Shown here piece by piece: positions 4,120 to 52,140 of a DNA stretch of 64,000 nt; position 1 is the first letter of the stretch, and each line of letters starts with the position of its first letter. Made by a program: the position numbers and the translations under genes. The stretch is taken from contig OZ250161.1 in NCBI GenBank assembly GCA_965237985.1, forward strand, positions 1,615,012-1,679,011, given 5' to 3'. This DNA is from Candidatus Oxydemutatoraceae bacterium. Its GTDB lineage: Bacteria > Pseudomonadota > Gammaproteobacteria > Poriferisulfidales > Oxydemutatoraceae. Under the pieces are notes generated by a model, which did not search any database, was not told the origin of the DNA, and worked only from the letters and a program-made list of their open reading frames with translations.

Positions 4120-4904
4120 TGCCTGAAGCTGATTTCAGCAACACGCAGCTGCTGCGTTACAGCCGCCAGCTCATGCTTCCTGAAATTGGCTTGCAAGGAC
4201 AGCATACCCTGCAGGATTCCTGCGTTTTGATCATTGGCATGGGAGGACTGGGCATTCCTCTGGCGACCTACCTTGCCACCAGCGGCGTCGGCAAACTGAT
4301 TCTGGTTGACGGAGATCGGATTGAACTCGCCAATCTTCACCGCCAGCCCCTGTATCGTGAAAGTGATGTCGGGGCGGAAAAAGTCACCGTGGTTGCGGAG
4401 CGCTTGGCGGCATTGAATTCGGAAATTGAAATACAGACGTTCGGCCAGCGCGCCGATGAAGACATGGTCAGCGATCTGGCGATCGGGGCGCAAGTGGTGG
4501 CCGACAGCTCGGACAACTTTCAGACCCGTTTTGCCGTGAATCGCGCCTGCTGGAAAAGCACCAGGCCCTTGGTGAGCGCCGCAGTCATTCGTATGGAAGG
4601 GCAACTCACGGTTTTTGATTCCAGGAACCCGGAAAGCCCGTGCTACGCCTGCCTGTATCCGGAACGGGTGTCGGGACAACAGGAGGAAAGTTGCGTGGAA
4701 AGCGGCATAGTCGCGCCTTTGGCCGGAATGATGGGCTGTGCCCAGGCACTGGAAGTTACCAAACTACTGCTGGATATTGGTACCTCTTTGACTGGTCGGT
4801 TTTTGATGCTGGATGCCCGTCTGATGGAATGGCGTGAAATCCGCCTTCGGAAAAGTCCGGGCTGCACGGTGTGCGGGCCTGCGAACCAGGGTGCCCGTGA
4901 CTGA
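4119..4904 (+). CDS. moeB: Molybdopterin-synthase adenylyltransferase MoeB (ThiF/HesA family)
   Basis: 'LIIGMGGLGIPLATYLATSGVGKLILVDGDRIELANLHRQ', plus C-terminal CxxC pairs (CYAC...CTVCG). Its last ~50 nt form part of the downstream 125-bp repeat. Confidence 0.85.
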   Translation: MPEADFSNTQLLRYSRQLMLPEIGLQGQHTLQDSCVLIIGMGGLGIPLATYLATSGVGKLILVDGDRIELANLHRQPLYRESDVGAEKVTVVAERLAALNSEIEIQTFGQRADEDMVSDLAIGAQVVADSSDNFQTRFAVNRACWKSTRPLVSAAVIRMEGQLTVFDSRNPESPCYACLYPERVSGQQEESCVESGIVAPLAGMMGCAQALEVTKLLLDIGTSLTGRFLMLDARLMEWREIRLRKSPGCTVCGPANQGARD

Positions 4905-6390
4905 AACAGACACCCTGCTGACCCTGGAGATTACTGGTACCAGACTGGACATCCCGGGAACCGCACATGTTTCCAGGAAGTCCGGACTGCACGGTGTGCG
5001 GGCCTGCGAACCAGGGTGCCCGTGACTGAAACAGACACCCTGCTGACCCTGGAGATTACTGGTACCAGACTGGACATCCCGGGAACCGCACATGTTTCCA
5101 GGAAGTCCGGGCTGCACGGTGTGCACCTGCGAACCAGGGTGCCCGTGACTGAAACAGACACCCCGCTGACCCTGGAGATTACTGGTACCAGACTGGACAT
5201 CTTGGGAACCGCCTGCGAACCAGGGTGCCCGTGACTGAAACAGACACCCCGCTGACCCTGGAGATTACTGGTACCAGACTGGACATCCCGGGAACCGCAC
5301 ATGTTTCCAGGAAGTCCGGGCTGCACGGTGTGCGGGCCTGCGAACCAGGGTGAAACAGACACCCCGTGACTGAAACAGACACCCAGGAAGTCCGGGCTGC
5401 ACGGTGTGCGGACCTGCGAACCAGGGTGCCCGTGACTGAAACAGACACCCCGCTGACCCTGGAGATTACTGGTACCAGACTGGACATCCCGGGAACCGCA
5501 CATGTTTCCAGGAAGTCCGGGCTGCACGGTGTGCGGACCTGCGAACCAGGGTGCCCGTGACTGAAACAGACACCCCGCTGACCCTGGAGATTACTGGTAC
5601 CAGACTGGACATCCGGGAACCGCACATGTTTCCAGGAAGTCTGGGCTGCACGGTGTGCGGGCCTGCGAACCAGGGTGTACCCGTGACTGAAACAGACACC
5701 CTGCTGACCCTGGAGATTACTGGTACCAGACTGGACATCTTGGGAACCGCACATGTTTCCAGGAAGTCCGGGCTGCACGGTGTGCGGACCTGTGAACCAG
5801 GGTGCCCGTGACTGAAACAGACACCCCGCTGACCCTGGGATTACTGGTACCAGACTGGACATCTTGGGAACCGCACATGTTTCCAGGAAGTCCGGGCTGC
5901 ACGGTGTGCGGGCCTGCGAACCAGGGTGCCCGTGACTGAAACAGACACCCCGCTGACCCTGGAGATTACTGGTACCAGACTGGACATCTTGGGAACCGCA
6001 CATGTTTCCAGGAAGTCCGGGCTGCACGGTGTGCGGGCCTGTGAACCAGGGTGCCCGTGACTGAAACAGACACCCTGCTGACCCTGGAGATTACTGGTAC
6101 CAGACTGGACATCCCGGGAACCGCACATGTTTCCAGGAAGTCCAGGCTGCACGGTGTGCGGACCTGCGAACCAGGGTGCCCGTGACTGAAACAGATACCC
6201 TGCTGACCCTGGAGATTACTGGTACCAGACTGGACATCCCGGGAACCGCACATGTTTCCAGGAAGTCCGGGCTGCACGGTGTGCGGACCTGCGAACCAGG
6301 GTGCCCGTGACTGAAACAGACACCCCGCTGACCCTGGAGATTACTGGTACCAGACTGGACATCTTGGGAACCGCACATGTTTCCAGTATC
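4850..6390. repeat. Tandem array of ~125-bp units, about 12 copies, each copying the moeB 3' end plus the TraB-family gene 5' end
   Basis: The motif 'cccgtgactgaaacagacacc' recurs at 4893, 5018, 5141, 5225, 5430, 5553, 5680, 5807, 5930, 6052, 6180 and 6303. Each unit encodes '...PGCTVCGPANQGARD*' (moeB tail) and 'MPVTETDTxLTLEITGTRLDIxGTAHVS' (TraB head). The period is not a multiple of 3. Confidence 0.9.
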
Positions 6391-7497
6391 AGTCACCAGA
6401 CAGTCATGGAATTGGTTGGCAGCAGGACCTACGACTCAGTTGCGGTCGAGTTGTGCGCGCAGCGCGTACGCATGATTTTCGATGAAGAGAAATACTCCGA
6501 AACCGACATCTGGCAATTGATTAAAAAAAAGCAGATGGCGGCTTTTGCGACCGGCTTGCTTTTCAGTGCTTTTCAACGACGGGTTGCTGAACAAATAGGA
6601 GTGGAACCCGGCTCCGAATTGAAAGCAGCTGTGCGTTTGAGCCGGGAACAATCCATCACTCCGCTTTTGGTGGACCGAGATATTGGCATCACTTTCAAAC
6701 GCCTGCATCGGAGCTTGTCCTTCTGGACCCGACTTTCCATTCCTTCCCTGGTTTTTTTCAGCCTGTTTTCGCGTCAGAAAGTGTCAGCGGAAGAAATAGA
6801 GGCACTGAAAAAAGGCGATGTAGTTGCTTCTCTCTTTGAACAACTGGAACTGGGACACAAAGAAATTTATCAGGTTCTGATCAAGGAACGGGACTGTTAT
6901 ATGGCAACAAAACTTGTGGAATATATCCGCGCCCACAAGCCTTCCAGAATGTTGCTGGTGGTCGGTGCCGGGCATGTTCCCGGGTTGCTGCGGGAAATCC
7001 CTGTTGTCGGGACGGAACCGCAGACCACGCTACATGACCTTGAGGTCATCCCGCAGTCGGCAAGGTGGTTGAAGTATATTCCCTGGGTGATTGTGGCGGT
7101 AATCCTCGCTGGGTTTGCCGTCGGGTTCAGCAGGGATGTGGAACTCGGTTTCAGTCTGGTGCGCGACTGGGTGCTGATTAATGGTGGTCTGGCGGCTCTC
7201 GGGGCCCTGCTGGCGGGCGGGCACCCGCTTACGGTGGTTACCGCGTTCGTGGCGGCACCCCTGACTTCGATCAACCCGACGATCGGTGCCGGCATGGTGA
7301 CGGCGGCAGCCGAAATCTATTTACGCAAGCCACGTGTGAGTGACTTCAAGTCACTGAGAGAAAGTACGAACAGCCTTTTTGGCTGGCGAAAAAACCGCGT
7401 GGCACGAACGGTGTTGATTTTTTTTCTGAGCACTTTCGGTTCGATAGTGGGTACCTGGCTTGGTGGCCTGTGGATTTACGAAAGCCTGAGCGGGTGA
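6301..7497 (+). CDS. TraB/GumN family protein (pheromone-shutdown TraB-like)
   Basis: N-terminal 'ITGTRLDILGTAHVS' motif typical of TraB/GumN, and a C-terminal membrane segment. GTG start at 6301 in the last repeat unit. The length of the 5' overlap with moeB was not re-derived and may vary with repeat number. Confidence 0.7.
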   Translation: MPVTETDTPLTLEITGTRLDILGTAHVSSISHQTVMELVGSRTYDSVAVELCAQRVRMIFDEEKYSETDIWQLIKKKQMAAFATGLLFSAFQRRVAEQIGVEPGSELKAAVRLSREQSITPLLVDRDIGITFKRLHRSLSFWTRLSIPSLVFFSLFSRQKVSAEEIEALKKGDVVASLFEQLELGHKEIYQVLIKERDCYMATKLVEYIRAHKPSRMLLVVGAGHVPGLLREIPVVGTEPQTTLHDLEVIPQSARWLKYIPWVIVAVILAGFAVGFSRDVELGFSLVRDWVLINGGLAALGALLAGGHPLTVVTAFVAAPLTSINPTIGAGMVTAAAEIYLRKPRVSDFKSLRESTNSLFGWRKNRVARTVLIFFLSTFGSIVGTWLGGLWIYESLSG

Positions 7498-7672
7498 TTT
7501 TGTCGTCTTGACGGCAAGATTTTCTGGCTGCTTCCGGAGAATCAGAAGTGGCTGACCGCTGACTGAGATTGAGACGCAGGCAACAGTTCAGAAATATCTG
7601 GCTGAAAATCCAGAATCTGCTTTGCGGATGATCCTGCCCGGTCAGCTTGGGTCAAATAGGAGGCATTGAATT

Positions 7673-8016
7673 CAAGCGGCCAGTCGGTCTATAAGCCGGG
7701 TTCTGTGATCGATAGTCATCCATCTGCGGTGTACGTCACCGCACACCTCTTGCGGCCCACCCGAACCTTGGCGCGGGCTACGCGGTTCTAAATTTGGCCT
7801 TGCTCCAAGTGAGGTTTACCCCGCCGCGCATGTTGCCATCCGCGCGGTGCGCTCTTACCGCACCTTTTCACCCTTACCCGCAATAAAGCGGGCGGTATAT
7901 TTTCTGTGGCACTTTCTGTAGGCTCGCGCCCCCCAGGTGTTACCTGGCACTCTGCCCTGTGGAGCCCGGACTTTCCTCTGCTCGAAGGCAGCGACTATCC
8001 GACCGACTCGCCGATT
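7673..8016 (-). ncRNA. rnpB: RNase P RNA, bacterial type A
   Basis: Minus-strand sequence contains 'AGGAAAGTCCGGGCTCCACAGGGCAGAGTGCCAGGTAACACCTGGGGGG', 'GGTAAGGGTGAAAAGGTGCGGTAAGAGCGCACCGCGCGG', 'GGTAAACCTCACTTGGAGCAAGGCCAAAT' and 'ACAGAACCCGGCTTATAGACCGACTGGCC'. These are collinear with E. coli M1 RNA. The P1 helix pairs ggcgagtcggtc with gaccgactggcc. Confidence 0.85.
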
Positions 8017-8236: not shown

Positions 8237-11200
8237 TGGCAAGACCCGTTTCAGTCAGGCTTTGCCTGCTCACCCATGGTGGTGTCGTAACTCTGTAACC
8301 TCAGGCGATGCATGGTGTCCCGTGCCTGTTCCTGTTGATGTGTATAAGGCCCGAGCAATACTTGGAATCATGTCTGGAACCGTTTGTTGTCGTTCGCAGG
8401 GACAGCATCGGTGCGGACTTCGAAGCCCAGTTCGACTACGGTTTTTTCCAGTTTCAAAGCAAGACCCGTTTCAGTCAGGATTTGCCTGCTCACCCATGGT
8501 GGTGTCGTAACTCTGTAACCTCAGGCGATGCATGGTGTCCCGCGCCTGTTTCTGTTGATGTGTATAAGGCCCGAGCAATACTTGGAATCATGTCTGGAAC
8601 CGTTTGTTGCCGTTCGCAGGGACAGCATTGGTGCGGACTTCAAAGCCTGGTTCGACTACGGTTTTTTCCAGTTTCAAAGCAAGACCCGTTTCAGTCAGGC
8701 TTTGCCTGCTCACCCATGGTGGTGTCGTAACTCTGTAACCTCAGGCGATGCATGGTGTCCCGCGCCTGTTTCTGTTGATGTGTATAAGGCCCGAGCAATA
8801 CTTGGAATCATGTCTGGAACCGTTTGTTGCCGTTCGCAGGGACAGCATCGGTGCGGACTTCAAAGCCTGGTTCGACTACGGTTTTTTCCAGTTTCAAAGC
8901 AAGACCCGTTTCAGTCAGGATTTGCCTGCTCACCCATGGTGGTTGTCGTAACCCTGTAGTCTGAGGCGATGCATGGTGTCCCGCGCCTGTTTCTGTTGAT
9001 GTGTATAAGGCCCGAGCAATACTTGGAATCATGTCTGGAACTGTTTCTTGTCGTTCCCAAGGACAGCATTGGTGCGGGCTTCAAAGCCCAGTTCGACTAC
9101 GGTTTTTTCCAGTTTCAAAGCAAGACCCGTTTCAATCGGGATTTGCCTGCTCACCCATGGTGGTGTCGTAACCCTGTAACCTCAGGCGATGCATGGTGTC
9201 CCGCGCCTGTTTCTGTTGATGTGTATAAGGCCCGAGCAATACCTGGAATCATGTCTGGAACCGTTTGTTGCCGTTCGCAGGGACAGCATCGGTGCGGACT
9301 TCAAAGCCTGGTTCGGCTACGGTTTTTTCCCGTTTCAAAGCAAGACCCGTTTCAATCGGGATTTGCCTGCTCACCCATGGTGGTGTCGTAACCCTGTAAC
9401 CTCAGGCGATGCATGGTGTCCCGCGCCTGCATCCTGTTGATGTGTATAAGGCCCGAGCAATACTTGGAATCATGTCTGGAACTGTTTCTTGTCGTTCGCA
9501 AGGACAGCATTGGTGCGGGCTTCAAAGCCCAGTTCGACTACGGTTTTTTCCAGTTTCAAAGCAAGACCCGTTTCAGTCAGGATTTGCCTGCTCACCCATG
9601 GTGGTGTCGTAACCCTGTAGTCTGAGGCGATGCATGGTGTCCCGCGCCTGTTTCTGTTGATGTGTATAAGGCCCGAGCAATACTTGGAATCATGTCTGGA
9701 ACTGTTTCTTGTCGTTCGCAAGGACAGCATTGGTGCGGGCTTCAAAGCCCAGTTCGACTACGGTTTTTTCCAGTTTCAAAGTAAGACCCGTTTCAGTCAG
9801 GCTTTGCCTGCTCACCCATGGTGGTGTCGTAACCCTGTAACCTCAGGCGGTGCATGGTGTCCCGCGCCTGTTCCTGTTGATGTGTATAAGGCCCGAGCAA
9901 TACTTGGAACTGTTTTTTGTCGTTCGCAAGGACGGCATGGTGCGGGTTTCGAAGTCTGGTTCGGCTACGGTTTTTTCCAGTTTCAAAGCAAGACCCGTTT
10001 CAATCGGGATTTGCCTGCTCACCCATGGTGGTGTCGTAACCCTGTAGTCTGAGGCGATGCATGGTGTCCCGCGCCTGTTCCTGTTGATGTGTATAAGGCC
10101 CGAGCAATACTTGGAATCATGTCTGGAACCGTTTGTTGCCGTTCGCAGGGACAGCATCGGTGCGGACTTCAAAGCCTGGTTCGGCTACGGTTTTTTCCAG
10201 TTTCAAAGCAAGACCCGTTTCAATCGGGATTTGCCTGCTCACCCATGGTGGTGTCGTAACCCTGTAACCTCAGGCGATGCATGGTGTCCCGCGCCTGTTC
10301 CTGTTGATGTGTATAAGGCCCGAGCAATACTTGGAATCATGTCTGGAACCGTTTGTTGTCGTTCGCAAGGACAGCATGGTGCGGGCTTCAAAGCCTGGTT
10401 CGACTACGGTTTTTTCCAGTTTCAAAGCAAGACCCGTTTCAATCGGGATTTGCCTGCTCACCCATGGTGGTGTCGTAACCCTGTAACCTCAGGCGATGCA
10501 TGGTGTCCCGCGCCTGTTCCTGTTGATGTGTATAAGGCCCGAGCAATACTTGGAACTGTTGGAACCGTTTGTGTCGTTCGCAAGGACAGCATGGTGCGGG
10601 TTTCGAAGCCTGGTTCGGCTACGGTTTTTTCCAGTTTCAAAGCAAGACCCGTTTCAGTCAGGATTTGCCTGCTCACCCATGGTGGTGTCGTAACTCTGTA
10701 ACCTCAGGCGATGCATGGTGTCCCGTGCCTGTTTCTGTTGATGTGTATAAGGCCCGAGCAATACTTGGAATCATGTCTGGAACTGTTTCTTGTCGTTCGC
10801 AAGGACAGCATTGGTGCGGGCTTCAAAGCCCAGTTCGACTACGGTTTTTTCCAGTTTCAAAGCAAGACCCGTTTCAATCGGGATTTGCCTGCTCACCCAT
10901 GGTGGTGTCGTAACCCTGTAACCTCAGGCGATGCATGGTGTCCCGCGCCTGTTTCTGTTGATGTGTATAAGGCCCGTTTCAAAGCAAGACCCGTTTCAAT
11001 CGGGATTTCCCTGCTCACCCATGGTGGTGTCGTAACTCTGTAACCTCAGGCGATGCATGGTGTCCCGCGCCTGTTTCTGTTGATGTGTATAAGGCCCGAG
11101 CAATACTTGGAATCATGTCTGGAACCGTTTGTTGCCGTTCGCAGGGACAGCATGGTGCGGGTTTCGAAGTCTGGTTCGGCTACGGTTTTTTCCAGTTTCA

Positions 11201-12010
11201 AAGCAAGACCTGTTTCAATCGGGATTTGCCTGCTCACCCATGGTGGTGTCGTAACCCTGTAACCTCAGGCGACGCATGGTGTCCCGTGCCTGTTTCTGTT
11301 GATGTGTATAAGGCCCGAGCAATACTTGGAACTGTTTTTTGTCGTTCGCAAGGACGGCATGGTGCGGGTTTCGAAGTCTGGTTCGGCTACGGTTTTTTCC
11401 AGTTTCAAAGCAAGACCCGTTTCAGTCAGGATTTGCCTGCTCACCCATGGTGGTGTCGTAACCCTGTAACCTCAGGCGATGCATGGTGTCCCGCGCCTGT
11501 TTCTGTTGATGTGTATAAGGCCCGAGCAATACTTGGAATCATGTCTGGAACCGTTTGTTGTCGTTCGCAGGGACAGCATCGGTGCGGACTTCAAAGCCCA
11601 GTTCGGCTACGGTTTTTTCCAGTTTCAAAGCAAGACCCGTTTCAATCGGGATTTGCCTGCTCACCCATGGTGGTGTCGTAACTCTGTAACCTCAGGCGAT
11701 GCATGGTGTCCCGCGCCTGTTTCTGTTGATGTGTATAAGGCCCGAGCAATACTTGGAATCATGTCTGGAACCGTTTGTTGCCGTTCGCAAGGACAGCATC
11801 GGTGCGGACTTCAAAGCCTGGTTCGACTACGGTTTTTTCCAGTTTCAAAGCAAGACCCGTTTCAATCGGGATTTGCCTGCTCACCCATGGTGGTGTCGTA
11901 ACCCTGTAACCTCAGGCGATGCATGGTGTCCCGTGCCTGCTGGTTGGTATAAGGCCCGAGCAATACTTGGAACTGTTTCTTGTCGTTCGCAAGGACAGCA
12001 TTGGTGCGGG
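8237..12010. repeat. Tandem array of ~220-bp units, about 17 copies, degenerate copies of the 3' end of the SPOR-domain gene
   Basis: 'gcgatgcatggtgtcc' recurs at 8306, 8526, 8746, 8966, 9187, 9407 and onward, every 220 bp. Minus-strand translation of each unit gives 'KLEKTVVELGFEARTNAVLANDKKQFQ', matching the C-terminus of the gene at 11862..12380. Confidence 0.9.
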
Positions 12011-12380
12011 CTTCAAAGCCCAGTTCGACTACGGTTTTTTTCAGTTTCTCCGCATCGCTGTGCAGGGCAAAAACGCGCGATTGCAAGTGGTATATTTTTG
12101 CCGAACTCGGGTGGTTGTCAGAGTCCCCGGTGACCAGTTTTTGACGATCCTTGAGCAAAGTGAAATAAGTGTAGCGGGCCTGTTGCACTTCGTTGTCTGC
12201 CACTATCGGTTTTTTTGCTGATGGAACGGGTGGCGTTGCCGGATTTCTGTCTGCGTTTACCTGATAGAGGTAGATGGTCAACACCACGAAGCCGACAAGC
12301 CCGGCGAACAGCACCCACCGTGTGGGTTTTTTCTGTGCTGTTTCCAGTTCGTGGGCCCGGTGTTTGTAGTCCTTGATCAT
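11862..12380 (-). CDS. SPOR-domain protein (N-terminal TM anchor, C-terminal SPOR peptidoglycan-binding domain)
   Basis: Membrane helix 'WVLFAGLVGFVVLTIYLY'. C-terminal 'VVELGFEARTNAVLANDKKQFQVLLGPYTNQQARDTMHRLRLQGYD' fits the SPOR fold. It lies downstream of argS, as with SPOR genes in other gammaproteobacteria. Confidence 0.7.
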   Translation of the reverse strand: MIKDYKHRAHELETAQKKPTRWVLFAGLVGFVVLTIYLYQVNADRNPATPPVPSAKKPIVADNEVQQARYTYFTLLKDRQKLVTGDSDNHPSSAKIYHLQSRVFALHSDAEKLKKTVVELGFEARTNAVLANDKKQFQVLLGPYTNQQARDTMHRLRLQGYDTTMGEQANPD

Positions 12381-12498: not shown

Positions 12499-14280
12499 TC
12501 ACATCCTGACCGGTGCTGTGATGCCACAAATGCCCAAACCATTTTCCAGTACCCGCGCCGTGGCCAAGAACAATCGCAATCTCGCTTTACGCAGGTGTGG
12601 ATCGTCGACAAGTACTTGGTGTCGGTTATAGCAACTGTGCAGTTTCGCCGCCAGATCCCGAAGATATACCAGAACATGGTGTGGTTCGTGGGCACGAAAT
12701 GCAATGTTCAAGGTATGAGAATAGAGGTGCAAATGATTGATTAAATCGACTTCTTCTTTTTCTCGCAACAAATGAAGTTGGTCGGATTTCCCTGTTGTAT
12801 CCGGGTACAGATCTTTAGCTTTGGCGGATACGCTGCGAATGCGGGCATGCGCGTACTGGATATAGAAGACCGGGTTTTTTTCGTTGCGGGATTTTGCCAA
12901 GTCGATGTCAAAGTCCAAATGCTGGCTCGGTTTTCTGAACAGGAAAAAGAAGCGCGCTGCTTCGACACCGACTTCTTCATACAAATCGCGCAGTGTCACA
13001 AAACTTCCGGCACGCGTAGACATGGGTTCCTTCTGGCCGTCACGCAGCAATGTCACGAACTGCACAAAGACGGTGTGCAATTTCTGCTTTTCATAGCCCA
13101 TGGCAGAGAGTGCGGCGCGCAAACGAGTTTCGTAGCCGTGGTGGTCAGCACCCCAGACATTGATGAATCGGTCGTAGGGGCGCCCTTCCCGGTCTCTGCG
13201 GTCAAATTTGTCTTTGTGATAGGCAATGTCTGAAGCGAAGTAAGTAAAGCGGCCGTCGCTACGTTGCACGACATGATCTTTTACATCACCAAAATGTGTG
13301 GAACGAAACCAGAGTGCCCCGTCATGGCGATAAGTATGTTCTCTTTCCCTGAGAATCTTGAGGACTTCTTCGATTTTTTTCTGTTCTATCAACTCCCGTT
13401 CCGATTGCCAGTGACGAAAGGTCACTTTGAAATCTTTTAGGTCACGTTTTATGTCTTGCTTGATTTTCGCGAGCGCAAATTTCCGGATCCGAGCGGTATC
13501 CGCTTCCCCGATCGCGAGATTTTGGAAAACGATGAGCTCGTCTATCCGTTTTTCTGCATCGTTTGTCGTCGCAGTCCACTCCGGCTGATCGCTTGGTGTG
13601 GGAACAAATTTGTCACCATACTCATCCCTCAGCTCATCTGCCCGATCCCTGATGTAACTGCCCTGGTATGCCGAGAGCGGGAATGGAATCGTTTTGCGGG
13701 CTTTTGCACCCTCAAGGTAGCGGAGCCAGACCGAAAGGCCCAGGACATCGACCTGCCTGCCGGCGTCGTTGACGTAGTATTCATGTTCTACATGGTGGCC
13801 GAAGCGCTTGTTCAAGTCAGCCAGTGCGCTTCCGTATGCCGCCCCCCGGCCATGACCAACATGCAGAGGACCGGTCGGGTTGGCAGAAACATATTCAACG
13901 AGCACCCGCTCGCGTGTAGTTTCCAGTTCTGGAAATTGACTCCCGGTTTTCAATATGCGTTCAATTATGGTTTCCGCCCCGGCAATATAAAAATTTATAA
14001 AGCCCGGGCCCATTGGCTCGATTTTTTTCAGTCCGCCGGGGCCGGGGCACTGCATTTTGGCAATGATTTCCCTGGCAACTTCCATTGCCGGTTTTTCCAC
14101 CTGACGTGATAAAACCATGGCTACATTGGTGGTGTAGTCTCCGTACACCGCCACTCGGCAAGGTTCTACTTTGGGGGCCACCCTGTCCACAAGCTCTTTG
14201 TCAAACAAAGCCAGCAGGGCGTTTTTGAGATCCTTCTGGATTTCCAGGGCTCTGTTTTCAGTTGTCAAATGGGGATCCAC
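12499..14280 (-). CDS. argS: Arginyl-tRNA synthetase
   Basis: Full-length class I aaRS with a HIGH-like 'PTGPLHVGHGRGA' motif and a DALR anticodon-binding domain. I placed the start at GTG 14280, giving 593 aa. The ORF runs on to ATG 14391, which would add a 37-aa non-homologous extension. Confidence 0.85.
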   Translation of the reverse strand: MDPHLTTENRALEIQKDLKNALLALFDKELVDRVAPKVEPCRVAVYGDYTTNVAMVLSRQVEKPAMEVAREIIAKMQCPGPGGLKKIEPMGPGFINFYIAGAETIIERILKTGSQFPELETTRERVLVEYVSANPTGPLHVGHGRGAAYGSALADLNKRFGHHVEHEYYVNDAGRQVDVLGLSVWLRYLEGAKARKTIPFPLSAYQGSYIRDRADELRDEYGDKFVPTPSDQPEWTATTNDAEKRIDELIVFQNLAIGEADTARIRKFALAKIKQDIKRDLKDFKVTFRHWQSERELIEQKKIEEVLKILREREHTYRHDGALWFRSTHFGDVKDHVVQRSDGRFTYFASDIAYHKDKFDRRDREGRPYDRFINVWGADHHGYETRLRAALSAMGYEKQKLHTVFVQFVTLLRDGQKEPMSTRAGSFVTLRDLYEEVGVEAARFFFLFRKPSQHLDFDIDLAKSRNEKNPVFYIQYAHARIRSVSAKAKDLYPDTTGKSDQLHLLREKEEVDLINHLHLYSHTLNIAFRAHEPHHVLVYLRDLAAKLHSCYNRHQVLVDDPHLRKARLRLFLATARVLENGLGICGITAPVRM

Positions 14281-15103
14281 CGTTGCCAGGAATAAAGCAT
14301 GACCGGCATCAGCCAGGCACGGGGGGCGTAAAGATCGGGTTCCTGAAGTCGTTCGGTGAACTGAACAGGTAGCCGGTGCCTGCTGCGACATTTTTCATTT
14401 CTGGTCTGCGAGTTGTATCGTGCGAGGCGTTGCCTGCATTTCTGGAACACGAGGGCGACACCAGGCAGTACCCGTTGTCGAGTCTGGCAAGCTTCGACAT
14501 TACCATGGCCAGTACTTGGACCACCATGAACAAGTATCTGATTTCCTCCTTTTTTTTCAATCCAGATTTTGACATGAATACCGTGAATCAGTACGTGCGG
14601 GCACTTGCTGCATGTTGTATGTGCCCCACCGGCAAGCGTGAAAGAATTCCCATCAATTCCCACAAGGCCGGCCCGAGGAGATGATCAAGTTTGCCGCTCA
14701 CTCAAGGCAGACCCGGCACCGGTTTGTGTCAAAGCCGAGATTCCGCACAACGGAATAGCTGGAAAAGCGTGCGTGCATTGTTGCCAGAAAGAATTCCCAC
14801 GTTTGGCAACCACCCGAAGCATCATGCTCTGGTGTCAGTCTTGTGGCGAATTCTGCGAGTCACCGTCGCTTCGAAAACCAGCCGCCAAGATGGATTTCTC
14901 AGTGCCGACATCGTGCCGGGCATCAAGAAGAGACAGTTCATTCACGAAACCGACCGCGCGGAGCCTGTGGTTCAGAGTCCCGCCCGTTTGTAGTGGTCAT
15001 TTGACGATTCGGGCTTCCTTTTCAGCGAAGTCCATTCCTCGTACAAAGTCGCCGATGTGGGCTACGAACTGACCGACCCTCTTTTTCTTTTTCTCCCACC
15101 GTC

Positions 15104-17898: not shown

Positions 17899-18225
17899 TT
17901 AGTCTTTCAAAGTCCCTTTCGGCATCAGTTGTGCCACTGCCTGTTTTTGGACTTTCACGATCATGTTGTTGGACACTTCAAGTTTTACGAAAGTTTCGCC
18001 AACTTCCACCACGCGACCGAGCAACCCACCGTTGGTGACTATCTCATCGTTGCGCGACAGGGAGGCGATCATTTGCTTGTGTTCCTTGTTGCGCTTGCTT
18101 TGGGGGCGGATAACCAGCAGGTAGAGAATGAGGAAAAACGCCCCAAGCAAAACCAGAGTTTCAATGCCGCCACTCGAGGAGGGGTTTGGTGTTTGCGCCA
18201 TGGCATTTTGAATAAAAATTTCCAT
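17899..18225 (-). CDS. yajC: Preprotein translocase subunit YajC
   Basis: 108 aa with single TM 'LVLLGAFFLILYLLVIRPQSKR' and 'GGLLGRVVEV'. Immediately upstream of secD. Confidence 0.9.
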   Translation of the reverse strand: MEIFIQNAMAQTPNPSSSGGIETLVLLGAFFLILYLLVIRPQSKRNKEHKQMIASLSRNDEIVTNGGLLGRVVEVGETFVKLEVSNNMIVKVQKQAVAQLMPKGTLKD

Positions 18226-18391
18226 CAGTATTTCCTACCTCTTCTGTGAAGATTCTGGGCTTTCCAAGTGTCTTTATGCCGTTCCCGGGTTTTCACCTTG
18301 GATGCGCGGCTGCGATAGAACCTAGGGCCGTAAGATTATGGCACAACTCGGCTGTCGCCAAACGCCGGCCAGTGGAGCAAAAACAAGGTTT

Positions 18392-34165: not shown

Positions 34166-34237
34166 CACTGACTGACGCAACTCGCCACCTCAGCCACCTG
34201 GCTTCAGGTACAGGGATATTTTGTGGCCCCAGTTCCC

Positions 34238-36983: not shown

Positions 36984-37255
36984 GGTTTTTCTCAATTACA
37001 CGTGGTGTCTTTGAAATGGTAAAAGCAGCGTTCAAGCCTAAAGGTTTGTTGCGGTGTGTGCAGCGCAGGTGTTTGCCAGGATCATGCGCGCTCCGCTTTC
37101 GACCATCATTCTGGGCGTTAGCCCCTTGACGGTAGCCTGTGTTCCCACCGGTATGAAAGCAGGCGTCGGGACGGTGCCGCGCGGGAAACGCAATTCCCCG
37201 GCGCGCGCTTGGCCGCAGTGGCTGTCAACGTGAAACTGCATGGTTTTTCTCAATC
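36790..37255. repeat. Tandem duplication, two ~230-bp units, of the queA 3' end-tgt 5' end junction
   Basis: 36813-37020 is nearly identical to 37067-37275. The second copy yields the ORF 37038..37346, a tgt N-terminal fragment ('MQFHVDSHCGQARAGELRFPRGTVPTPAFIPVGTQATVKG...'). Confidence 0.85.
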
Positions 37256-38309: not shown

Positions 38310-41300
38310 GAATTCATGGTGGAACGCAGCGGTGTCTGAGCGACCGGAAAGTATCGTTTCCCGTGGTCACGGCACAATGGGCTTGCGGTCATGCATATTC
38401 CGGAAGTCAGACCATCCGGTACCGAGTGGTTGCGCAAATCCGGCATCATACTTTTGACTGTCATCAGTTTCTTTTGGACATTGGCATTCATGGTGGAACG
38501 CAGCGGTGTCTGAGCGACCGGGAAATATCGTTTCCTGCGGTCACGGCATAATGGGTTTGCGGTCATGCGTATTCCGGAAGTCAGACCATCCGGTACCGAG
38601 AGGTTGCGCAAATCCGGCATCATACTTTCGGCAGCCATCAGTGTCTTTTGGACATTGGCATTCATGGTGGAACGCAGCGGTGTCTGAGCGTTCGGAAAGT
38701 ATCGTTTCCCGTGGTCACGGCATAATGGGTTTGCGGTCATGCATATTCCGGAAGTCAGGCCATCCAGTACCGAGAGGTTGCGCAAATCCAGCACTACATT
38801 TTCGGTAGTCATCAGTGTCTTTTGGACATTGGCATTCATGGTGGAACGCAGCGGTGTCTGAGCGACCGGAAAATATCGTTTCCCGTGGTCACGGCATAAT
38901 GGGCTTGCGGTCATGCATATTCCGGAAGTCAGACCATCCGGTACCGAGGGGTTGCGCAAATCCAGCACTACTTTTCGACTAGTCATCAGTTTCTTTTGGA
39001 CATTGGCATTCATGGTGGAACGCAGCGGTGTCTGTGAGCGACCGGAAAGTATCGTTTCCCGTGGTCACGGCATAATGGGTTTGCGGTCATGCATATTCCG
39101 GAAGTCAGACCATCCGGTACCGAGAGGTTGCGCAAATCCGGCATCATACTTTTCGACAGTCATCAGTTTCTTTTGGACATTGGCATTCATGGTGGAACGC
39201 AGCGGTGTCTGAGCGTTCGGAAAATATCGTTTCCTGCGGTCACGGCATAATGGGTTTGCGGTCATGCGTATTCCGGAAGTCAGACCATCCGGTACCGAGA
39301 GGGTTGCGCAAATCCAGCACTGCATTTTCGGCAGTCATTAGTGTCTTTTGGACATTGGCATTCATGGTGGAACGCAGCAGTGCCTGAGTGAGCGACCGGA
39401 AAATATCGTTTCCCGTGGTCACGGCATAATGGGCTTGCGGTCATGCGTATTCCGGAAGTCAGACCATCCGGTACCGAGGGGGTTGCGCAAATCCGGCACA
39501 TATTTTCGGCAGTCATCAGTGTCTTTTGGACATTGGCATTCATGGTGGAACGCAGCGGTGCCTGAGCGTTCGGAAAATATCGTTTCCGTGGTCACGGCAT
39601 AATGGGGTCGTGGTCATGCGTATTCCGGAAGTCAGACCATCCGGTACCGAGAGGTTGCGCAAATCCGGCATCATACTTTTGACTGTCATTAGTTTCTTTT
39701 GGACATTGGCATTCATGGTGGAACGCAGCGGTGTCTGAGCGACCGGAAAATATCGTTTCCTGCGGTCACGGCATAATGGGTTTGCGGTCATGCGTATTCC
39801 GGAAGTCAGACCATCCGGTCACCGAGAGGGTTGCGCAAATCCAGCATCATTTTCGGCAGTCATCAGTGTCTTTTGGACATTGGCATTCATGGTGGAACGC
39901 AGCGGTGTCTGAGCGTTCGGAAAATATCGTTTCCTGCGGTCACGGCATAATGGGTTTGCGGTCATGCATATTCCGGAAGTCAGACCATCCGGTACCGAGG
40001 GGGTTGCGCAAATCCGGCACTGCATTTTCGGCAGTCATCAGTGTCTTTTGGACATTGGCATTCATGGTGGAACGCAGCGGTGTCTGAGCGACCGGAAAGT
40101 ATCGTTTCCCGTGGTCACGGCATAATGGGTTGCGGTCATGCGTATTCCGGAAGTCAGACCATCCGGTACCGAGGGGTTGCGCAAATCCGGCACTGTATTT
40201 TCGGCAGTCATCAGTGTCTTTTGGACATTGGCATTCATGGTGGAACGCAGCGGTGTCTGAGCGACCGGAAAGTATCGTTTCCTGTGGTCACGGCATAATG
40301 GGTTTGCGGTCATGCGTATTCCGGAAGTCAGACCATCCGGCACCGAGAGGTTGCGCAAATCCAGCATCATACTTTCGACTGTCATCAGTTTCTTTTGGAC
40401 ATTGGCATTCATGGTGGAACGCAGCGGTGTCTGAGCGACCGGAAAGTATCGTTTCCTGCGGTCACGGCATAATGGGTTTGCGGTCATGCGTATTCCGGAA
40501 GTCAGGTCACCCTTCACAGAGGGGTTGCGCAAATCCGGCACTGTATTTTCGGCAGTCATCAGTGTCTTTTGGACATTGGCATTCATGGTGGAACGCAGCG
40601 GTGCCTGAGTGAGCGACCGGGAAATATCGTTTCCTGCGGTCACGGCATAATGGGCTTGCGGTCATGCTATTCCGGAAGTCAGGCCATCCGGTACCGAGGG
40701 GGTTGCGCAAATCCGGCATCATACTTTCGGCAGTCATCAGTGTCTTTTGGACATTGGCATTCATGGTGGAACGCTTGAGCGACCGGGAAATATCGTTTCC
40801 TTGGCACAATGGGTTTGCGGTCATGCGTATCACAGAGGGGTTGCGCAAATGGCACTATATTTTCAGCAGTGTCTTTTGGACATTGGCATTCATGGTGGAA
40901 CGCAGCGGTGTCTGTGCGACCGGAAAGTATCGTTTCCCGTGGTCACGGCATAATGGGCTTGCGGTCATGCGTATTCCGGAAGTCAGACCATCCGGTCCGA
41001 GAGGTTGCGCAAATCCGGGATTTTCAGGAGGCCAGGGGGTTGCGCAAATCCGGCATCATACTTTTGACTGTCATCAGTTTCTTTTGGACATTGGCATTCA
41101 TGGTGGAACGCAGCGGTGTCTGCGACCGGAAAGTATCGTTTCCTGCGGTCACGGCATAATGGGTTTGCGGTCATGCGTTTCCGGAAGTCAGGCCATCCGG
41201 TACCGAGAGGTTGCGCAAATCCAGCATCATACTTTTGACTGTAAGTTTCTTTTGGGCATTGGCATTCATGGTGGAACGCAGCGGTGCTGATGAGCGTCCG

Positions 41301-42950
41301 GAAAATAGGTCACGGCATAATGGGTTTGCGGTCATGCGTATTCCGGAACCGAGAGGGGGTTGCGCAAATCCAGCACTGTATTTTCGGCACTGTTGAACAT
41401 TGGCATTCATGATGGAACGCAGCGGTGTCTGAGTGATCGGAAAGTATCGTTTCCTGTGGTCACGGCATAATGGGTTTGCGGTCATGCGTATTCCGGGTCA
41501 GACCATTACCGATGATTGCGATACGCAGCATTAGTTTCTTTTGAACATTGGCATTCATGGTGGAACGCAGCGGTGTCTGTGCGACCGGAAAATATCGTTT
41601 CCCGCGGTCACGGCATAATGGGTTTGCGGTCATGCATATTCCGGAAGTCAGGCCATCCGGTACCGAGAGGTTGCGCAAATCCGGCACTATATTTTCGGCA
41701 GCCATTAGTTTCTTTTGGACATTGGCATTCATGGTGGAACGCAGCGGTGTCTGAGCGACCGGAAAGTATCGTTTCCTGCGGTCACGGCATAATGGGTTTG
41801 CGGTCATGCGTATTCCGGAAGTCAGGCCATCCGGTACCGAGAGGTTGCGCAAATCCGGCACTATATTTTCGGCAGCCATCAGTGTCTTTTGAACATTGGC
41901 ATTCATGGTGGAACGCAGCGGTGTCTGTGCGACCGGAAAGTATCGTTTCCTGCGGTCACGGCATAATGGGTTTGCGGTCATGCGTATTCCGGAAGTCAGG
42001 CCATCCCTTCACCGAGGGGTTGCGCAAATCCGGCACATATTTTCGGCAGCCATCAGTGTCTTTTGGACATTGGCATTCATGGTGGAACGCAGCAGTGCCT
42101 GAGTGAGCGTCCGGGAAATATCGTTTCCTGCGGTCACGGCATAATGGGCTTGCGGTCATGCGTATTCCGGAAGTCAGGTCATCCAGTACCGAGAGGTTGC
42201 GCAAATCCGGCATCATACTTTCGGCAGTCATCAGTGTCTTTTGGACATTGGCATTCATGGTGGAACGCAGCGGTGTCTGTGCGACCGGAAAGTATCGTTT
42301 CCTGCGGTCACGGCATAATGGGTTTGCGGTTATGCATATTCCGGAAGTCAGGCCATCCAGTACCGAGAGGTTGCGCAAATCCAGCACTACATTTTCGGTA
42401 GCCATCAGTGTCTTTTGGGCATTGGCATTTATGGTGGAACGCAGCGGTGTCTGAGCGACCGGAAAGTATCGTTTCCCGTGGTCACGGCATAATGGGTTTG
42501 CGGTAATGCGTATTCCGGAAGTCAGGTCACCCAGTACCGAGAGGTTGCGCAAATCCAGCACTACATTTTCGGTAGCCATCAGTTTCTTTTGGACATTGGC
42601 ATTCATGGTGGAACGCAGCGGTGCCTGAGCGACCGGAAAGTATCGTTTCCCGTGGTCACGGCATAATGGGTTTGCGGTCATGCATATTCCGGAAGTCAGG
42701 TCATCCGGTACCGAGGGGTTGCGCAAATCCGGCACTATATTTTCGGCAGTCATCAGTTTCTTTTGAACATTGGCATTCATGGTGGAACGCAGCGGTGTCT
42801 GAGCGTTCGGAAAATATCGTTTCCTGCGGTCACGGCATAATGGGTTTGCGGTAATGCGTATTCCGGAAGTCAGGTCACCCTTCACAGAGGGATTGCGCAA
42901 ATCTGGCACTACATTTTCGGTAGCCATCAGTTTCTTTTGGACATTTTGTT
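38310..42950. repeat. Tandem array of ~176-bp units, about 26 copies, each copying the murJ 5' end (about 90 nt) plus about 85 nt of upstream sequence
   Basis: 'ttttggacattggcattcatggtggaacgcagcggtg' recurs about every 176 bp from 38474 to 42945. The last unit diverges from genuine murJ immediately after 'ttttggacatt'. Plus-strand frames give '...RKSGTTFSVAISVFWTLAFMVERSGV*'. Confidence 0.9.
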
Positions 42951-44467
42951 CCCGAATACTTGGTTATCTGCGTGATATTGCAATTTTTCTGACTTTTGGA
43001 GCAACCGGGCTCACGGATATTTTCCTGGTGGCTTTTCGCCTGCCGAATTTTTTTCGTCGCCTGTTCGCCGAGGGGGCTTTCACTCAAGCTTTCGTTCCTG
43101 TGCTGACCACCATGTTGCACAAGTCTCCAGCTGGAGAAGTCCGAAATTTCATCAGTCGGACTTTTGGCTCCCTCGCGGTCGTGTTGTTTGTGGTAACCGC
43201 GATTGGGATGTTGCTGGCCCCCGTGCTGATTTTTCTGTTTGCTCCAGGTTTGTCCGAGCATGCCGGGCAACTGGAGTTGGCTTCGGAAATGCTCCGCATC
43301 ACCTTCCCCTATCTTATTTTCATTTCTCTGGCGGCTATGGCTACGGGGGTTCTCAACTGTTTCGGGGCTTTCGGCGTACCGGCTTTTACCCCGGTACTGC
43401 TCAATCTGTCGCTGATCGGTGCCGCCTTGTGGCTGGCGCCGCGTATGGAGGAACCGATTACCGCTTTGGCGTGGGGTGTTTTGGCAGGCGGGGCAGCCCA
43501 GCTTCTGGTACAACTGCCGTTTCTTGCCGGTCGACGGATGCTGAGCTGGCCACGCATCGGTTTTTCCAATCCGCAGGTGCGCAAGGTCTTGCAGTTGATG
43601 TCGCCAGCGATACTGGGTTCTTCTGTGGTACAGATCAATTTGCTGATCGATACCTTCATTGCTTCGTGGCTGATCAGCGGCAGCATCAGCTGGCTTTATT
43701 TGTCGGATCGTTTTGTCGAGTTTCCGGTCGGCTTGTTCGGCGTGACTTTGTCCATGATTCTTTTGCCGCGCATGGCCCTCAGCTTTGCCGAGCGGTCGCC
43801 GGCAAGATACAACGCGCTGCTGAACTGGGGAGGGGCGGTGGTTCTTTTGACTGCCCTGCCGAGTCTGGCGGGACTCGTGCTTTTATCCGCCCCGATTTTA
43901 AGCACCCTGGTTCAATACGGGGAGTTCACCGCACACGATGTTCGCATGACCGAATTGAGCCTCATGGCTTACGCCGTCGGGATTCCGGCTTTCATATCGG
44001 TGAAGGTGCTCAATGCTGCGTTTTTCGCGCGCCATGAAATGCGCCTGCCGGTCAAAATCGCAGTGGGGTGCGTGTTGGCAAATCTGGTTTTCAATGTCAG
44101 CTTCGTGCTCCTTTGGCAATACTTCAATGTCGCCGGAGTACACGCCGGTCTGGCGCTGGCAACGAGCCTGTCTTCCTGGTTGAATACAGCCCTGCTGTTC
44201 GGTGCTTTGTCGCGGCGCGACTTGCTGCACATTGATCCGCTGATTAAAAAGCTGTCGTTGCGTGTGGTCATCGCTTCCCTGACAATGATTGCGCTGCTTG
44301 TGGTTTTTTTGCCGGATGCGTCGGCATGGGGACCTTGGTCCGCTGGACAGAGAATGTTGGTTTTGGCCGAACTGGTGCTGGGTGGGGCAAGTGCCTATGT
44401 CGTGGTTTTGTATGTTTCCGGATTTCGCTGGCGAGACGTGAAAGTGTTGGAAAAAGGCAGGCCCTGA
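42854..44467 (+). CDS. murJ: Lipid II flippase MurJ (MviN)
   Basis: 'FGATGLTDIFLVAFRLPNFFRRLFAEGAFTQAFVPVL', about 14 TM helices, 537 aa. The start is ambiguous between ATG 42854 and TTG 42893 because the N-terminus is embedded in the repeat. Confidence 0.85.
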   Translation: MRIPEVRSPFTEGLRKSGTTFSVAISFFWTFCSRILGYLRDIAIFLTFGATGLTDIFLVAFRLPNFFRRLFAEGAFTQAFVPVLTTMLHKSPAGEVRNFISRTFGSLAVVLFVVTAIGMLLAPVLIFLFAPGLSEHAGQLELASEMLRITFPYLIFISLAAMATGVLNCFGAFGVPAFTPVLLNLSLIGAALWLAPRMEEPITALAWGVLAGGAAQLLVQLPFLAGRRMLSWPRIGFSNPQVRKVLQLMSPAILGSSVVQINLLIDTFIASWLISGSISWLYLSDRFVEFPVGLFGVTLSMILLPRMALSFAERSPARYNALLNWGGAVVLLTALPSLAGLVLLSAPILSTLVQYGEFTAHDVRMTELSLMAYAVGIPAFISVKVLNAAFFARHEMRLPVKIAVGCVLANLVFNVSFVLLWQYFNVAGVHAGLALATSLSSWLNTALLFGALSRRDLLHIDPLIKKLSLRVVIASLTMIALLVVFLPDASAWGPWSAGQRMLVLAELVLGGASAYVVVLYVSGFRWRDVKVLEKGRP

Positions 44468-49784: not shown

Positions 49785-49814
49785 ACGCAGCGGGCAACCG
49801 CGAAGCCACTTTAG

Positions 49815-51218
<1,404 letters not shown>

Positions 51219-51233
51219 ACACGAGACAAGACC

Positions 51234-51653
51234 ATGCAGACCATAGCAGTGCGCATAGTCAGCCAGAAGGGCGAGGTTTACAACGGTAAGGCAAACATAG
51301 TCAGCGCCGATGCCCACGACGGCGGAGTCGGGATATACCCTGGGCACGCCCCGTTCCTGACCTTGCTCCGACCAGGAGAAGTCAAAGTGCAGGTCGAAGG
51401 AAAAGAAGACCTGCGCTTTTTCGTGGCCGGTGGCATGCTCGAGGTTCAGCCCGACTTGGTGACAGTTCTGGCAGACACCATTGAGCGTAGCGAAGACCTG
51501 GACGAAGACCGCGCCGAAGCGGCAAAGAAACAGGCAGAAGCGCTGGCGCACAAAGGCGATCTAAGCCCTGAGGACAGAGCCAGAGCCATCGAACAACTCA
51601 CCGAAGCGGTTGCCCGCCTGCACATGATCGAAGAACTCCAGAAACGGCACTAA
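51234..51653 (+). CDS. atpC: ATP synthase F1 subunit epsilon
   Basis: N-terminal beta-sandwich ('VVSAD...GILPGHAP') plus C-terminal helical hairpin. 139 aa. Confidence 0.9.
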   Translation: MQTIAVRIVSQKGEVYNGKANIVSADAHDGGVGIYPGHAPFLTLLRPGEVKVQVEGKEDLRFFVAGGMLEVQPDLVTVLADTIERSEDLDEDRAEAAKKQAEALAHKGDLSPEDRARAIEQLTEAVARLHMIEELQKRH

Positions 51654-51659
51654 CACTAA

Positions 51660-52140
51660 CCCCACCCAAGACCCGCCATGCTCGAGGTTCAGCCCGACTT
51701 GGTGACGGTTCTGGCAGACACCGTTGAGCGTAGCGAAGACCTGGACAAAGACCGCGCCGAAGCGGCAAAGAAACAGGCAGAAGCGCTGGCGCACAAAGGC
51801 GATCTAAGCCCTGAGGCCAGAGCCAGAGCCATCGAACAACTCACCGAAGCCGTTGCCCGCCTGCACATAGATCGAAGAACTCCAGAAACGGCACTGACCC
51901 CACCCAAGACCCGCCATGCTCGAAGTTCAGCCCGACTTGGTGACGGTTCTGGCAGACACCGTTGAGCGTAGCGAAGACCTGGACAAAGATCGTGCCGAAG
52001 CGGCAAAGAAGCAGGCAGAAGCGCTGGCGCACAAAGGCGATCTAAGCCCTGAGGACAGAGCCAGAGCCATCGAACAACTCACCGAAGCCGTTGCCCGCCT
52101 GCACATAGATCGAAGAACTCCAGAAACGGCACTAACACTA
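51660..52140. repeat. Two additional ~238-bp tandem copies of the atpC 3' end, immediately downstream of atpC
   Basis: 'ccatgctcga.gttcagcccgacttggtgac.gttctggcagacacc' occurs at 51425 (in the gene), 51677 and 51915. The copies yield the pseudo-ORFs 51678..51965 and 51916..52266 ('MLEVQPDLVTVLADTVERSEDLD...'). Confidence 0.9.

Follow-up and report, generated by a model that had tools for sequence, protein, structure and literature searches.

Long tandem arrays, most of them built from the ends of neighbouring genes, interrupt the compact gene order of a 64,000-nt stretch of contig OZ250161.1 (positions 1,615,012 to 1,679,011, forward strand) from a Candidatus Oxydemutatoraceae bacterium; we call this whole stretch the window. 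Direct repeats occupy 13,761 nt, or 21.5% of the window, at nine loci, a total on which Tandem Repeats Finder (TRF), a repeat finder and self-BLASTN agree and which bears out the first-pass annotation of the sequence (about 13 kb, roughly 20%). We think it probable, with a likelihood of roughly 70%, that these arrays are tolerated by-products of replication and recombination, namely tandem duplications that arose through microhomology and were then amplified by unequal recombination or slippage in a host-associated lineage.

Tandem arrays at gene boundaries in the window

The array units are 66–299 nt long and occur in 1.6 to 27 copies. Arrays lie in 8 of the 14 gaps of at least 200 nt and in 6 of the 7 gaps of at least 700 nt, so the initial statement that almost every long gap is an array was too strong. 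When the arrays are collapsed, the window shrinks to 52.2 kb, many genes overlap or abut, and coding density, calculated for this window only, rises from 72% to 88%; the long gaps are thus created by the arrays. Self-BLASTN of the whole window revealed no inverted repeats and, as first described, found loci lying more than 6 kb apart to be unrelated in sequence. A permissive TRF run uncovered no further degenerate long-period arrays in the other long gaps, and no tRNA genes are present in the window as array anchors. The nine loci are as follows.

4853–6386, plus strand: moeB/traB array (array 1), 125-nt unit, about 12.3 copies
8239–12048, minus strand: SPOR array (array 2), 220-nt unit, about 17.3 copies
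18178–18299 with 18396–18517, minus strand: yajC 5′ duplication, 218-nt spacing, 1.56 copies
18513–19531, minus strand: rmuC array (array 3), 296–299-nt unit, about 3.4 copies
21985–22519, minus strand: queG array (array 4), compound 30/36/66/96-nt units, about 8 copies of the 66-nt unit
33773–34174, no strand assigned: array downstream of the Memo-AMMECR1 (AmmeMemo) gene, 198-nt unit, 2.03 copies, purely intergenic
36809–37026 with 37067–37283, minus strand: queA/tgt junction duplication, 258-nt spacing, about 1.85 copies, 96% identical
38312–42945, plus strand: murJ array (array 5), 174-nt unit, 27 units
51434–52155, plus strand: atpC array (array 6), 238–243-nt unit, 3.0 copies

At seven of these loci (moeB/traB, SPOR 3′, rmuC 3′, yajC 5′, queA/tgt, murJ 5′ and atpC 3′), the unit holds a gene 3′ end, a gene 5′ end or a whole gene–gene junction. 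The queG array adjoins a start codon, and the array downstream of AmmeMemo lacks a detectable gene end; the observation that one gene-terminus architecture recurs at eight or more loci is partly confirmed. Pfam scans confirmed the gene names that had been assigned (ThiF/MoeB, TraB, SPOR, YajC, RmuC, QueG, QueA, TGT, MurJ, AtpC and Memo-AMMECR1). The intact gene is always at the array edge, and the orphan copies inside, which derive from moeB, traB, SPOR, rmuC, yajC, tgt, queA, murJ and atpC, are frameshifted or truncated. Units match one another at 77–97%, have a G+C content of about 52–60% and include between about 3 and 250 nt of coding sequence each.

The moeB/traB unit joins the last 52 nt of moeB/ThiF (4119–4904) to the first ~77 nt of traB (6307–7497). 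The array is bordered by intact moeB on the left and by intact traB on the right. Units are 93–100% identical to each other, and the traB start (GTG, 6307) overlaps a moeB-type stop; the array is the amplified junction of two formerly overlapping genes. In the SPOR array, which lies between the 3′ end of the SPOR-domain gene (11862–12380, minus strand; Pfam match) and rnpB, each unit consists of the last ~186 nt of the gene and ~34 nt of downstream sequence, and the roughly 17 orphan copies are frameshifted and split into open reading frames (ORFs) of 40–41 codons. The stretch without repeats that separates traB from this array is explained by rnpB, the bacterial class A RNase P RNA gene (7676–8010, minus strand; Rfam 303.8 bits), which is the sole Rfam match in the window and lies outside the arrays.

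Two arrays meet between yajC and rmuC. The rmuC unit carries the last 188 nt of rmuC (19344–20651, minus strand) and ~110 nt of downstream DNA, whereas the yajC duplication takes in the first 48 nt of yajC (17899–18225) together with upstream DNA, its second copy being truncated where it meets the rmuC array. The distal rmuC copy (18516–18591) has lost 31 nt that, in other copies, are flanked by 8-nt TTTTTGCC direct repeats, and it is a clear case of deletion by slippage within an array. The queG array is built of 30- and 36-nt sub-units and adjoins a probable GTG start (about 21985–21987). Read from an ATG at 22089, its last 1.5 units share the frame of queG, and the upstream repeats read as the peptide repeat MKAHDLPQVS / VKARGSLTNQTS. 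Judged from the reading frame, QueG may carry a repeat-derived N-terminal extension.

The queA/tgt unit comprises the first ~175 nt of tgt (35877–36983) and the last 59 nt of queA (37225–38271), two genes that originally overlapped by 17 nt and are now separated by the duplication. Each atpC unit contains the last ~220 nt of atpC (51234–51653) and ~20 nt of downstream DNA; a 1-nt insertion leaves the orphan copies frameshifted. The repeat on the AmmeMemo side stops 64 nt short of the stop codon of the Memo-AMMECR1 gene (34238–35644, minus strand) and has no significant similarity to the gene 3′ end (score 19 versus 17.2 ± 2.2 for shuffles). On this shuffle-level score, we rejected a third copy of the repeat overlapping the gene.

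In the murJ array, the largest by copy number, each unit has ~79–85 nt of upstream DNA followed by the first ~90 nt of murJ (42854–44467). Five units (15–19) carry internal deletions, and a few variable blocks recur in mosaic combinations across units; for example, three haplotypes of the block CCGGCA..TCATCAGT are shuffled among them. Variable sites are less frequent in the non-coding half of the unit (19 of 79) than in the murJ-derived half (50 of 95; Fisher p = 1.7e-4). Most units keep a 40-codon ORF with a start codon, and about a third are frameshifted, truncated or lack a start. Coding constraint on these orphan ORFs was not detected, as variable sites fall evenly by codon position (16/14/17) with no third-position excess, and promoter- and terminator-like sites in the first murJ units were not above shuffles.

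These measurements agree with the unit sizes and copy numbers of the first-pass annotation for moeB/traB (125 bp, ~12 copies), SPOR (220 bp, ~17), rmuC 3′ (299 bp, with a yajC 5′ duplicate) and atpC 3′ (238 bp, 3), and refine others. The murJ 5′ array, given as ~26 copies of 176 bp, has 27 units at a period of 174 nt. A duplicated queA/tgt junction is indeed present, at a spacing of 258 rather than 230 nt. The 66-nt unit ascribed to the queG 5′ end exists, although no long coding piece is copied, the array either adjoining the GTG start or forming an in-frame N-terminal repeat. The AmmeMemo assignment (three 197-bp copies of the gene 3′ end) is not confirmed.

Array density in relatives and controls

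Array density was measured by a single TRF criterion (period at least 40 nt) in the window, in relatives and, as controls, in 349 kb of DNA at 27 loci of other gammaproteobacteria and betaproteobacteria. Long-period tandem repeats make up 19% of the window and 0.22% of the controls. By MurJ, the closest genomes are OZ244118.1 (‘uncultured Ca. Porisulfidus sp.’; 3.0 Mb, 85% amino-acid identity) and OZ243039.1 (‘Ca. Oxydemutatoraceae bacterium’; 1.9 Mb, 83%), each a metagenome-assembled genome (MAG) with a complete chromosome. In about 43 kb per relative, at loci chosen by homology to the window, Porisulfidus had densities of 8.6% and 13.5%, and the Oxydemutatoraceae genome had 4.6% and 3.6%. 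A metagenome scan with MurJ returned no relative above 50% identity, and the loci found served as extra controls. Array density is far beyond chance, and such arrays are specific to the lineage: they are dense in the window and in its two closest genomes and nearly missing from the controls. A Sanger genome note that reports a Porisulfidus MAG counts Porisulfidus among the known symbionts of sponges; it is based on PacBio HiFi sequencing of 8–10 kb fragments and metaMDBG assembly (PMC12988363) of a sample that may or may not be the source of our relatives.

Array units in the relatives span 81–494 nt. The arrays are listed below as unit length × copies.

Porisulfidus, mobB 3′: 494 nt × 3
Porisulfidus, traB 3′: 227 nt × 2
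Porisulfidus, secF 3′: 202 nt × 2
Porisulfidus, rmuC 3′: 250 nt × at least 2 (seen in loci L018, L033 and L034)
Porisulfidus, AmmeMemo 3′: 180 nt × 2
Porisulfidus, murJ 5′: 185 nt × about 7
Oxydemutatoraceae genome, nnr/tsaE junction: 115 nt × at least 8.6
Oxydemutatoraceae genome, murJ: two diverged copies
Oxydemutatoraceae genome: two small arrays

At the Porisulfidus SPOR 3′ end, two 379-nt copies that are 90% identical lie 2,070 nt apart (L018 11877–12255 and 13947–14322) with a DUF4268 gene between them, and the same split arrangement occurs in L033, L034 and L035. Such an arrangement could reflect either a large duplication unit or the insertion of a gene into a two-copy array. MobB fragments inside arrays have been called as genes in L033 and L034. 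The relatives possess recA and recX, and rmuC is intact in the window.

The Porisulfidus gap between argS and secF contains small ORFs as well as arrays. In one small ORF there, GCGACATGG and its variants form a microsatellite of 9-nt period, for which periods of 18 and 27 were scored as well; its copy number differs among co-occurring strains.

L018, 16752–16850: argS–secF microsatellite
L033, 16744–16834: argS–secF microsatellite
L034, 16525–16618: argS–secF microsatellite
L035, 17406–17507: argS–secF microsatellite

Age and turnover of the arrays

The relatives preserve the ancestral state of several loci. In relatives L018 and L032, the moeB/traB array is missing and the two genes share a 4-nt overlap; L032 has a single copy at rmuC and at yajC; and the queA/tgt and atpC loci are single-copy in L001 and L002, 21.6-kb loci of the two relatives. 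These ancestral single-copy or array-free states make the window arrays at moeB/traB, queA/tgt, atpC, rmuC and yajC lineage-specific. At murJ, the internal junction GGACATT-GGC-ATTCATG (..TTTTGGACATT-GGC-ATTCATG..) aligns across the window, L001 and L002; these have 27, 7 and 2 copies, respectively; the founding duplication therefore predates the split of the three genomes. The boundaries of the Porisulfidus rmuC, SPOR and AmmeMemo arrays differ from those in the window, marking them as independent events.

The first-pass annotation had called for a comparison of copy number between strains, which we made in a sister species of the window's own, using five co-occurring Porisulfidus-like contigs from one sample that are 98.5–99.3% identical in flanking genes. 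Copy numbers across these contigs were as follows.

traB 3′: 1, 1, 2, 2 and 5 copies
mobB 3′: 3.0, 4.6, 4.9 and 5.0 copies
secF 3′: 2, 2, 2 and 3 copies

This comparison shows that arrays in the sister species expand and contract today; the differences represent gain or loss, with no direction assigned.

Initiation and growth of the duplications

Slippage-type events at short direct repeats are visible, in keeping with replication slippage as one of the causes first suggested. In the single-copy traB 3′ allele of L019, the 8-nt sequence CGGCCTGT stands at both ends of a 227-nt segment, and L018 has this segment twice. Other young junctions show microhomology of 4 nt (atpC), 6 nt (traB 3′) and 10 nt (secF 3′), and two junctions have only 1 nt. 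Together with the rmuC deletion between 8-nt repeats, these junctions bear the marks of microhomology-mediated duplication and deletion.

We propose the following sequence of events. A segment of 100–500 nt between short direct repeats (1–10 nt) would be duplicated head to tail through replication slippage, template switching or illegitimate recombination, that is, by microhomology-mediated tandem duplication; this step can be seen in the young cases and presumably founded the old arrays as well. The two long copies could then undergo unequal sister-strand recombination or slippage, which would add or remove whole units, partly homogenise them and take arrays from 2 to 27 copies. Unequal exchange or slippage between units is what the mosaic variants, the whole-unit differences between strains and the higher-order periods (348 = 2 × 174; 446 = 2 × 219) point to. 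Selection would next purge duplications with both breakpoints in one gene, and survivors, in a compact genome whose gene spacers are short or negative, would mostly span a gene end or junction, leaving one intact gene copy at the array edge and decaying orphan fragments inside. Finally, the lineage, a clade whose closest genomes are sponge-metagenome MAGs of about 1.9–3.0 Mb, may, compared with most bacteria, make such duplications more often or purge them less efficiently, so that arrays accumulate and intergenic DNA inflates.

A selective filter as the probable source of the gene-end pattern

The filtering step is supported by a simulation in which random duplications of the observed sizes were placed on the collapsed window and counted as tolerated unless both breakpoints fell inside one gene. 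Of the random duplications, 28.5% were tolerated, and 82% of these included a gene end, an expectation that fits the eight of nine observed loci that touch one. Because random duplication and filtering already give 82%, a process targeted to gene ends is not needed, and in this model the gene-end pattern would be what purifying selection leaves in a compact genome. Unit periods carry a matching signature. Among boundary or intergenic arrays of the window and relatives, 7 of 18 periods are divisible by three, as expected by chance, whereas the intragenic repeats are divisible by three (30/36/66 at queG, where the 96-nt period is also a multiple; 54; and 9/27 in L018). The earlier remark that periods are mostly not multiples of three is accordingly weak, as 66, 174, 198 and 258 all are.

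The first-pass annotation had also envisaged an organism-specific process that slips or re-initiates at gene ends. Specificity to the lineage holds up; specificity for gene ends does not, given the simulated expectation. No k-mer was enriched beyond chance at 32 breakpoints, and a shared breakpoint motif or site-specific enzyme was rejected on these grounds; nor does the variable length of coding sequence included in the units support the suggested site-specific nicking activity. Unit folding energies were ordinary relative to shuffles on both strands (z from −1.55 to +1.99), and hairpin-driven slippage and structured RNA were rejected accordingly.

Alternative explanations

Some observations weigh against our view of the arrays as tolerated by-products. 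The murJ duplication has been retained since before three lineages split, and the lower variability of the non-coding half of its unit could mean some constraint, a mutation hot spot or gene conversion. The rmuC 3′, SPOR 3′ and AmmeMemo 3′ boundaries were struck independently in two lineages, which fits a small number of permissive boundaries and is also compatible with hot spots. Moreover, the murJ and atpC junctions contain three extra bases (GGC and CGC, respectively) that pure slippage does not predict, and the old, homogenised junctions are uninformative on microhomology. The high incidence itself may stem from a lost repair function or from weak selection.

If mutation were targeted to gene ends, through stalling, nicking or re-initiation at termini (terminator hairpins, transcription–replication conflicts or a site-specific nuclease), one would expect both the repeated strikes at the three shared boundaries and the gene ends touched by eight of nine window arrays and by nearly all arrays in the relatives. 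The 82% expected from the selective filter alone already explains eight of nine, however. The coding sequence included varies between about 3 and 250 nt, the arrays involve 5′ ends, 3′ ends and junctions alike, the breakpoints share no enriched k-mer, folding energies are ordinary, and the sampled murJ units have no terminator-like site. We regard targeting as very unlikely. Only slightly less doubtful is the idea that the arrays are kept for a function, whether as promoters or 5′ leaders (murJ, queG and yajC), as terminators or insulators (SPOR, rmuC and atpC), as spacers that uncouple overlapping genes, as copy-number-tuned expression elements or as sources of small peptides or RNAs. The age of the murJ duplication and its retention in three genomes, the less variable non-coding half of its unit, the 40-codon ORF that most murJ units keep and the in-frame, three-divisible queG repeats could all be cited in favour of function. 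Yet the murJ ORFs lack a third-position excess and about a third of the units are broken, SPOR and atpC orphan copies are frameshifted, rnpB is the only Rfam match and no structure signal was seen, the sampled murJ units show no enrichment of promoter- or terminator-like sites, and copy number is free to vary between near-identical strains. Unrelated sequences at 5′ ends, 3′ ends and junctions also behave alike, which one function does not explain. We likewise do not favour selection for variable spacing or expression, as first suggested, since coding constraint is lacking in the orphan murJ fragments; some room remains for function at the murJ locus itself, given its less variable non-coding half and the age of the duplication.

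That the arrays, or their copy numbers, are artefacts of mis-assembled metagenomic long reads seems to us highly improbable. The arrays reach lengths of 4.6 kb, a type of region that assemblers get wrong, and for the window we have an assembly rather than reads. Mis-assembly would more likely produce identical copies, however, and the units here are told apart by particular substitutions, indels and internal deletions that form ordered mosaics. Independent assemblies from other samples also contain such arrays, one of them with a homologous junction, and HiFi fragments of 8–10 kb, as in the sponge genome note (PMC12988363), would span all arrays except perhaps the largest. A more far-reaching version of events is that a heritable change in replication or recombination, for instance in a helicase, nuclease or polymerase that normally suppresses or collapses tandem duplications and whose function has been lost or altered, has made this clade the most tandem-repeat-rich bacterial lineage known (10–20% of the genome). 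Certain old arrays, among them the 27 leader copies of murJ with their conserved non-coding half, would then have been recruited to adjust how strongly the flanking gene is expressed; this is unlikely, if conceivable. We continue to favour microhomology-mediated duplication, amplification and filtering as the origin of the arrays.

Neighbouring features

Several features of the window lie outside the arrays. A probable defence or mobile island (26640–33668) encodes an MmeI-like methylase/restriction protein (1035 aa), a CesT-like chaperone, and a helix-turn-helix (HTH) plus ImmA/IrrE-type peptidase accompanied by a DUF4411 partner. Neither L001 nor L002 has DNA that matches the MmeI-like gene, and the peptidase gene occurs twice in L001 (26–1001 and 1683–2838). 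The spacer between the atpC array and hsdM contains a perfect 28-nt × 2 repeat (52334–52394; also scored at 16-nt and 9-nt periods). Beyond it, the region 52784–64000 comprises a type I restriction-modification operon (hsdM, hsdS and hsdR) and a YgjP-like peptidase gene. Next come a fragment encoding the HsdM N terminus, which lies on the opposite strand, and an ORF of 958 aa that contains an IS1595-type transposase domain; G+C content falls to 29.5% in the last kilobase of the window. This region looks like acquired DNA directly after the atpC array. The internal 618/636-nt repeats of hsdS reflect the normal two-domain structure of the protein and are separate from the array phenomenon. Two gaps, 14278–15103 (826 nt) and 26052–26639 (588 nt), contain no array and no Pfam-recognisable gene, and an ORF at 14605–15072 has no family match.

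Implications and comparison with known systems

Bacterial genomes are usually kept compact by deletion bias, and lineages with a tenth to a fifth of their DNA in recent tandem arrays are rare. Complete long-read genomes combined with co-occurring strain variants offer a natural experiment on the origin, amplification and selective filtering of tandem duplications. In practical terms, such arrays break short-read assemblies and give rise to spurious small ORFs and “partial gene” annotations, and they could serve as high-resolution strain markers. A literature search found no paper on such arrays in sponge symbionts.

Among known bacterial repeats, MIRU, REP and ERIC elements are intergenic families with the same sequence at many loci, and MIRUs also occur in tandem within operons, overlapping stop and start codons. 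In contrast, no two loci here share sequence, which sets the arrays apart from these elements, from miniature inverted-repeat transposable elements (MITEs) and from any dispersed family; the first-pass annotation had already excluded REP/ERIC elements and CRISPR. Indeed, whole units are arranged head to tail with no unique spacers, unlike CRISPR, and the arrays have neither an Rfam match nor the folding signal of structured RNA or regulatory repeats.

Borg repeats are closer in several respects: each array is unique, arises independently and varies in populations, and array units in ORFs are divisible by three as against only 14–38% of intergenic ones, which is the same filter signature (PMC9879509). 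However, Borg repeats are perfect, about 20–50 nt long, A-rich and often give rise to disordered protein regions (PMC9879509), whereas the units described here are 66–500 nt long, 77–97% identical, ordinary in composition and made of gene ends. The symbiont Portiera aleyrodidarum BT resembles our lineage in its long, repeat-rich intergenic DNA, with 69% coding sequence, no deletion bias and structural polymorphism within hosts; its repeats, by contrast, are mainly 7-bp microsatellites linked to the loss of dnaQ, mutL, ruvC and other genes (PMC3673631). In Wolbachia, the intergenic VNTR-141 and VNTR-105 loci have periods of 105–141 bp and vary from 0.8 to 7.3 copies between close strains; some units have internal deletions, as here, and slippage and concerted evolution have been proposed (PMC3287509). 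Those repeats occupy few loci (1–1.6% of the genome), are not described as copies of flanking gene ends and have units with hairpins that were proposed to set off slippage, a signal that we do not find here.

The proposed initiating event has a close counterpart in microhomology-mediated tandem duplications (MTDs), which have identical ends of 5–8 bp, are frequent and reversible and have been linked to replication slippage (Dan et al. 2021 PNAS, PMC8639346). Both are head-to-tail duplications of tens to hundreds of nucleotides, and the short identical ends of a single-copy allele are seen here in the 8-nt pair of the L019 traB 3′ allele and its duplicated L018 counterpart, with 4–10 nt elsewhere and other junctions at 1 nt or indeterminate. 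MTDs, however, are described as transient, subclonal, two-copy events and were rarer in E. coli in that study (PMC8639346), whereas the arrays here are fixed, persist across speciation and reach 27 copies.

The nearest parallel overall is Ehrlichia ruminantium, which shares with this lineage long-period arrays in non-coding DNA, a small host-associated genome and a low coding ratio. Here, nine independent long-period arrays lie outside intact genes in 64 kb, they lower the coding ratio of the window, and truncated gene fragments sit within them. Copy-number variation was seen among strains of the sister species and, at murJ, between species. Collins et al. are said to have found that most pseudogenes in E. 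ruminantium are likewise truncated gene fragments tied to repeats. The lifestyles differ, E. ruminantium being an alphaproteobacterial obligate intracellular pathogen and the present organism a sponge-associated gammaproteobacterium. In E. ruminantium, long intergenic regions leave about 64% of the genome coding, and tandem units expand and contract between strains (PMC10710844); the arrays have a mean period of 139 bp and a mean of 4.8 copies, with a maximum of 65 (PMC3287509, Table 4). Their TRF content of 6.3%, against 0.38% in E. coli, was called the highest reported for bacteria (PMC3287509); our values of 19–21% and 4–14% apply to the window and to sampled loci of the relatives, respectively. 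If the window density holds genome-wide, this lineage would be a second, independent and denser case than that record holder. The gene-junction anatomy and the explanation by a selective filter were worked out here. We conclude that the lineage is a dense new case of an E. ruminantium-type repeat-rich genome, displaying a kind of instability that is already known.

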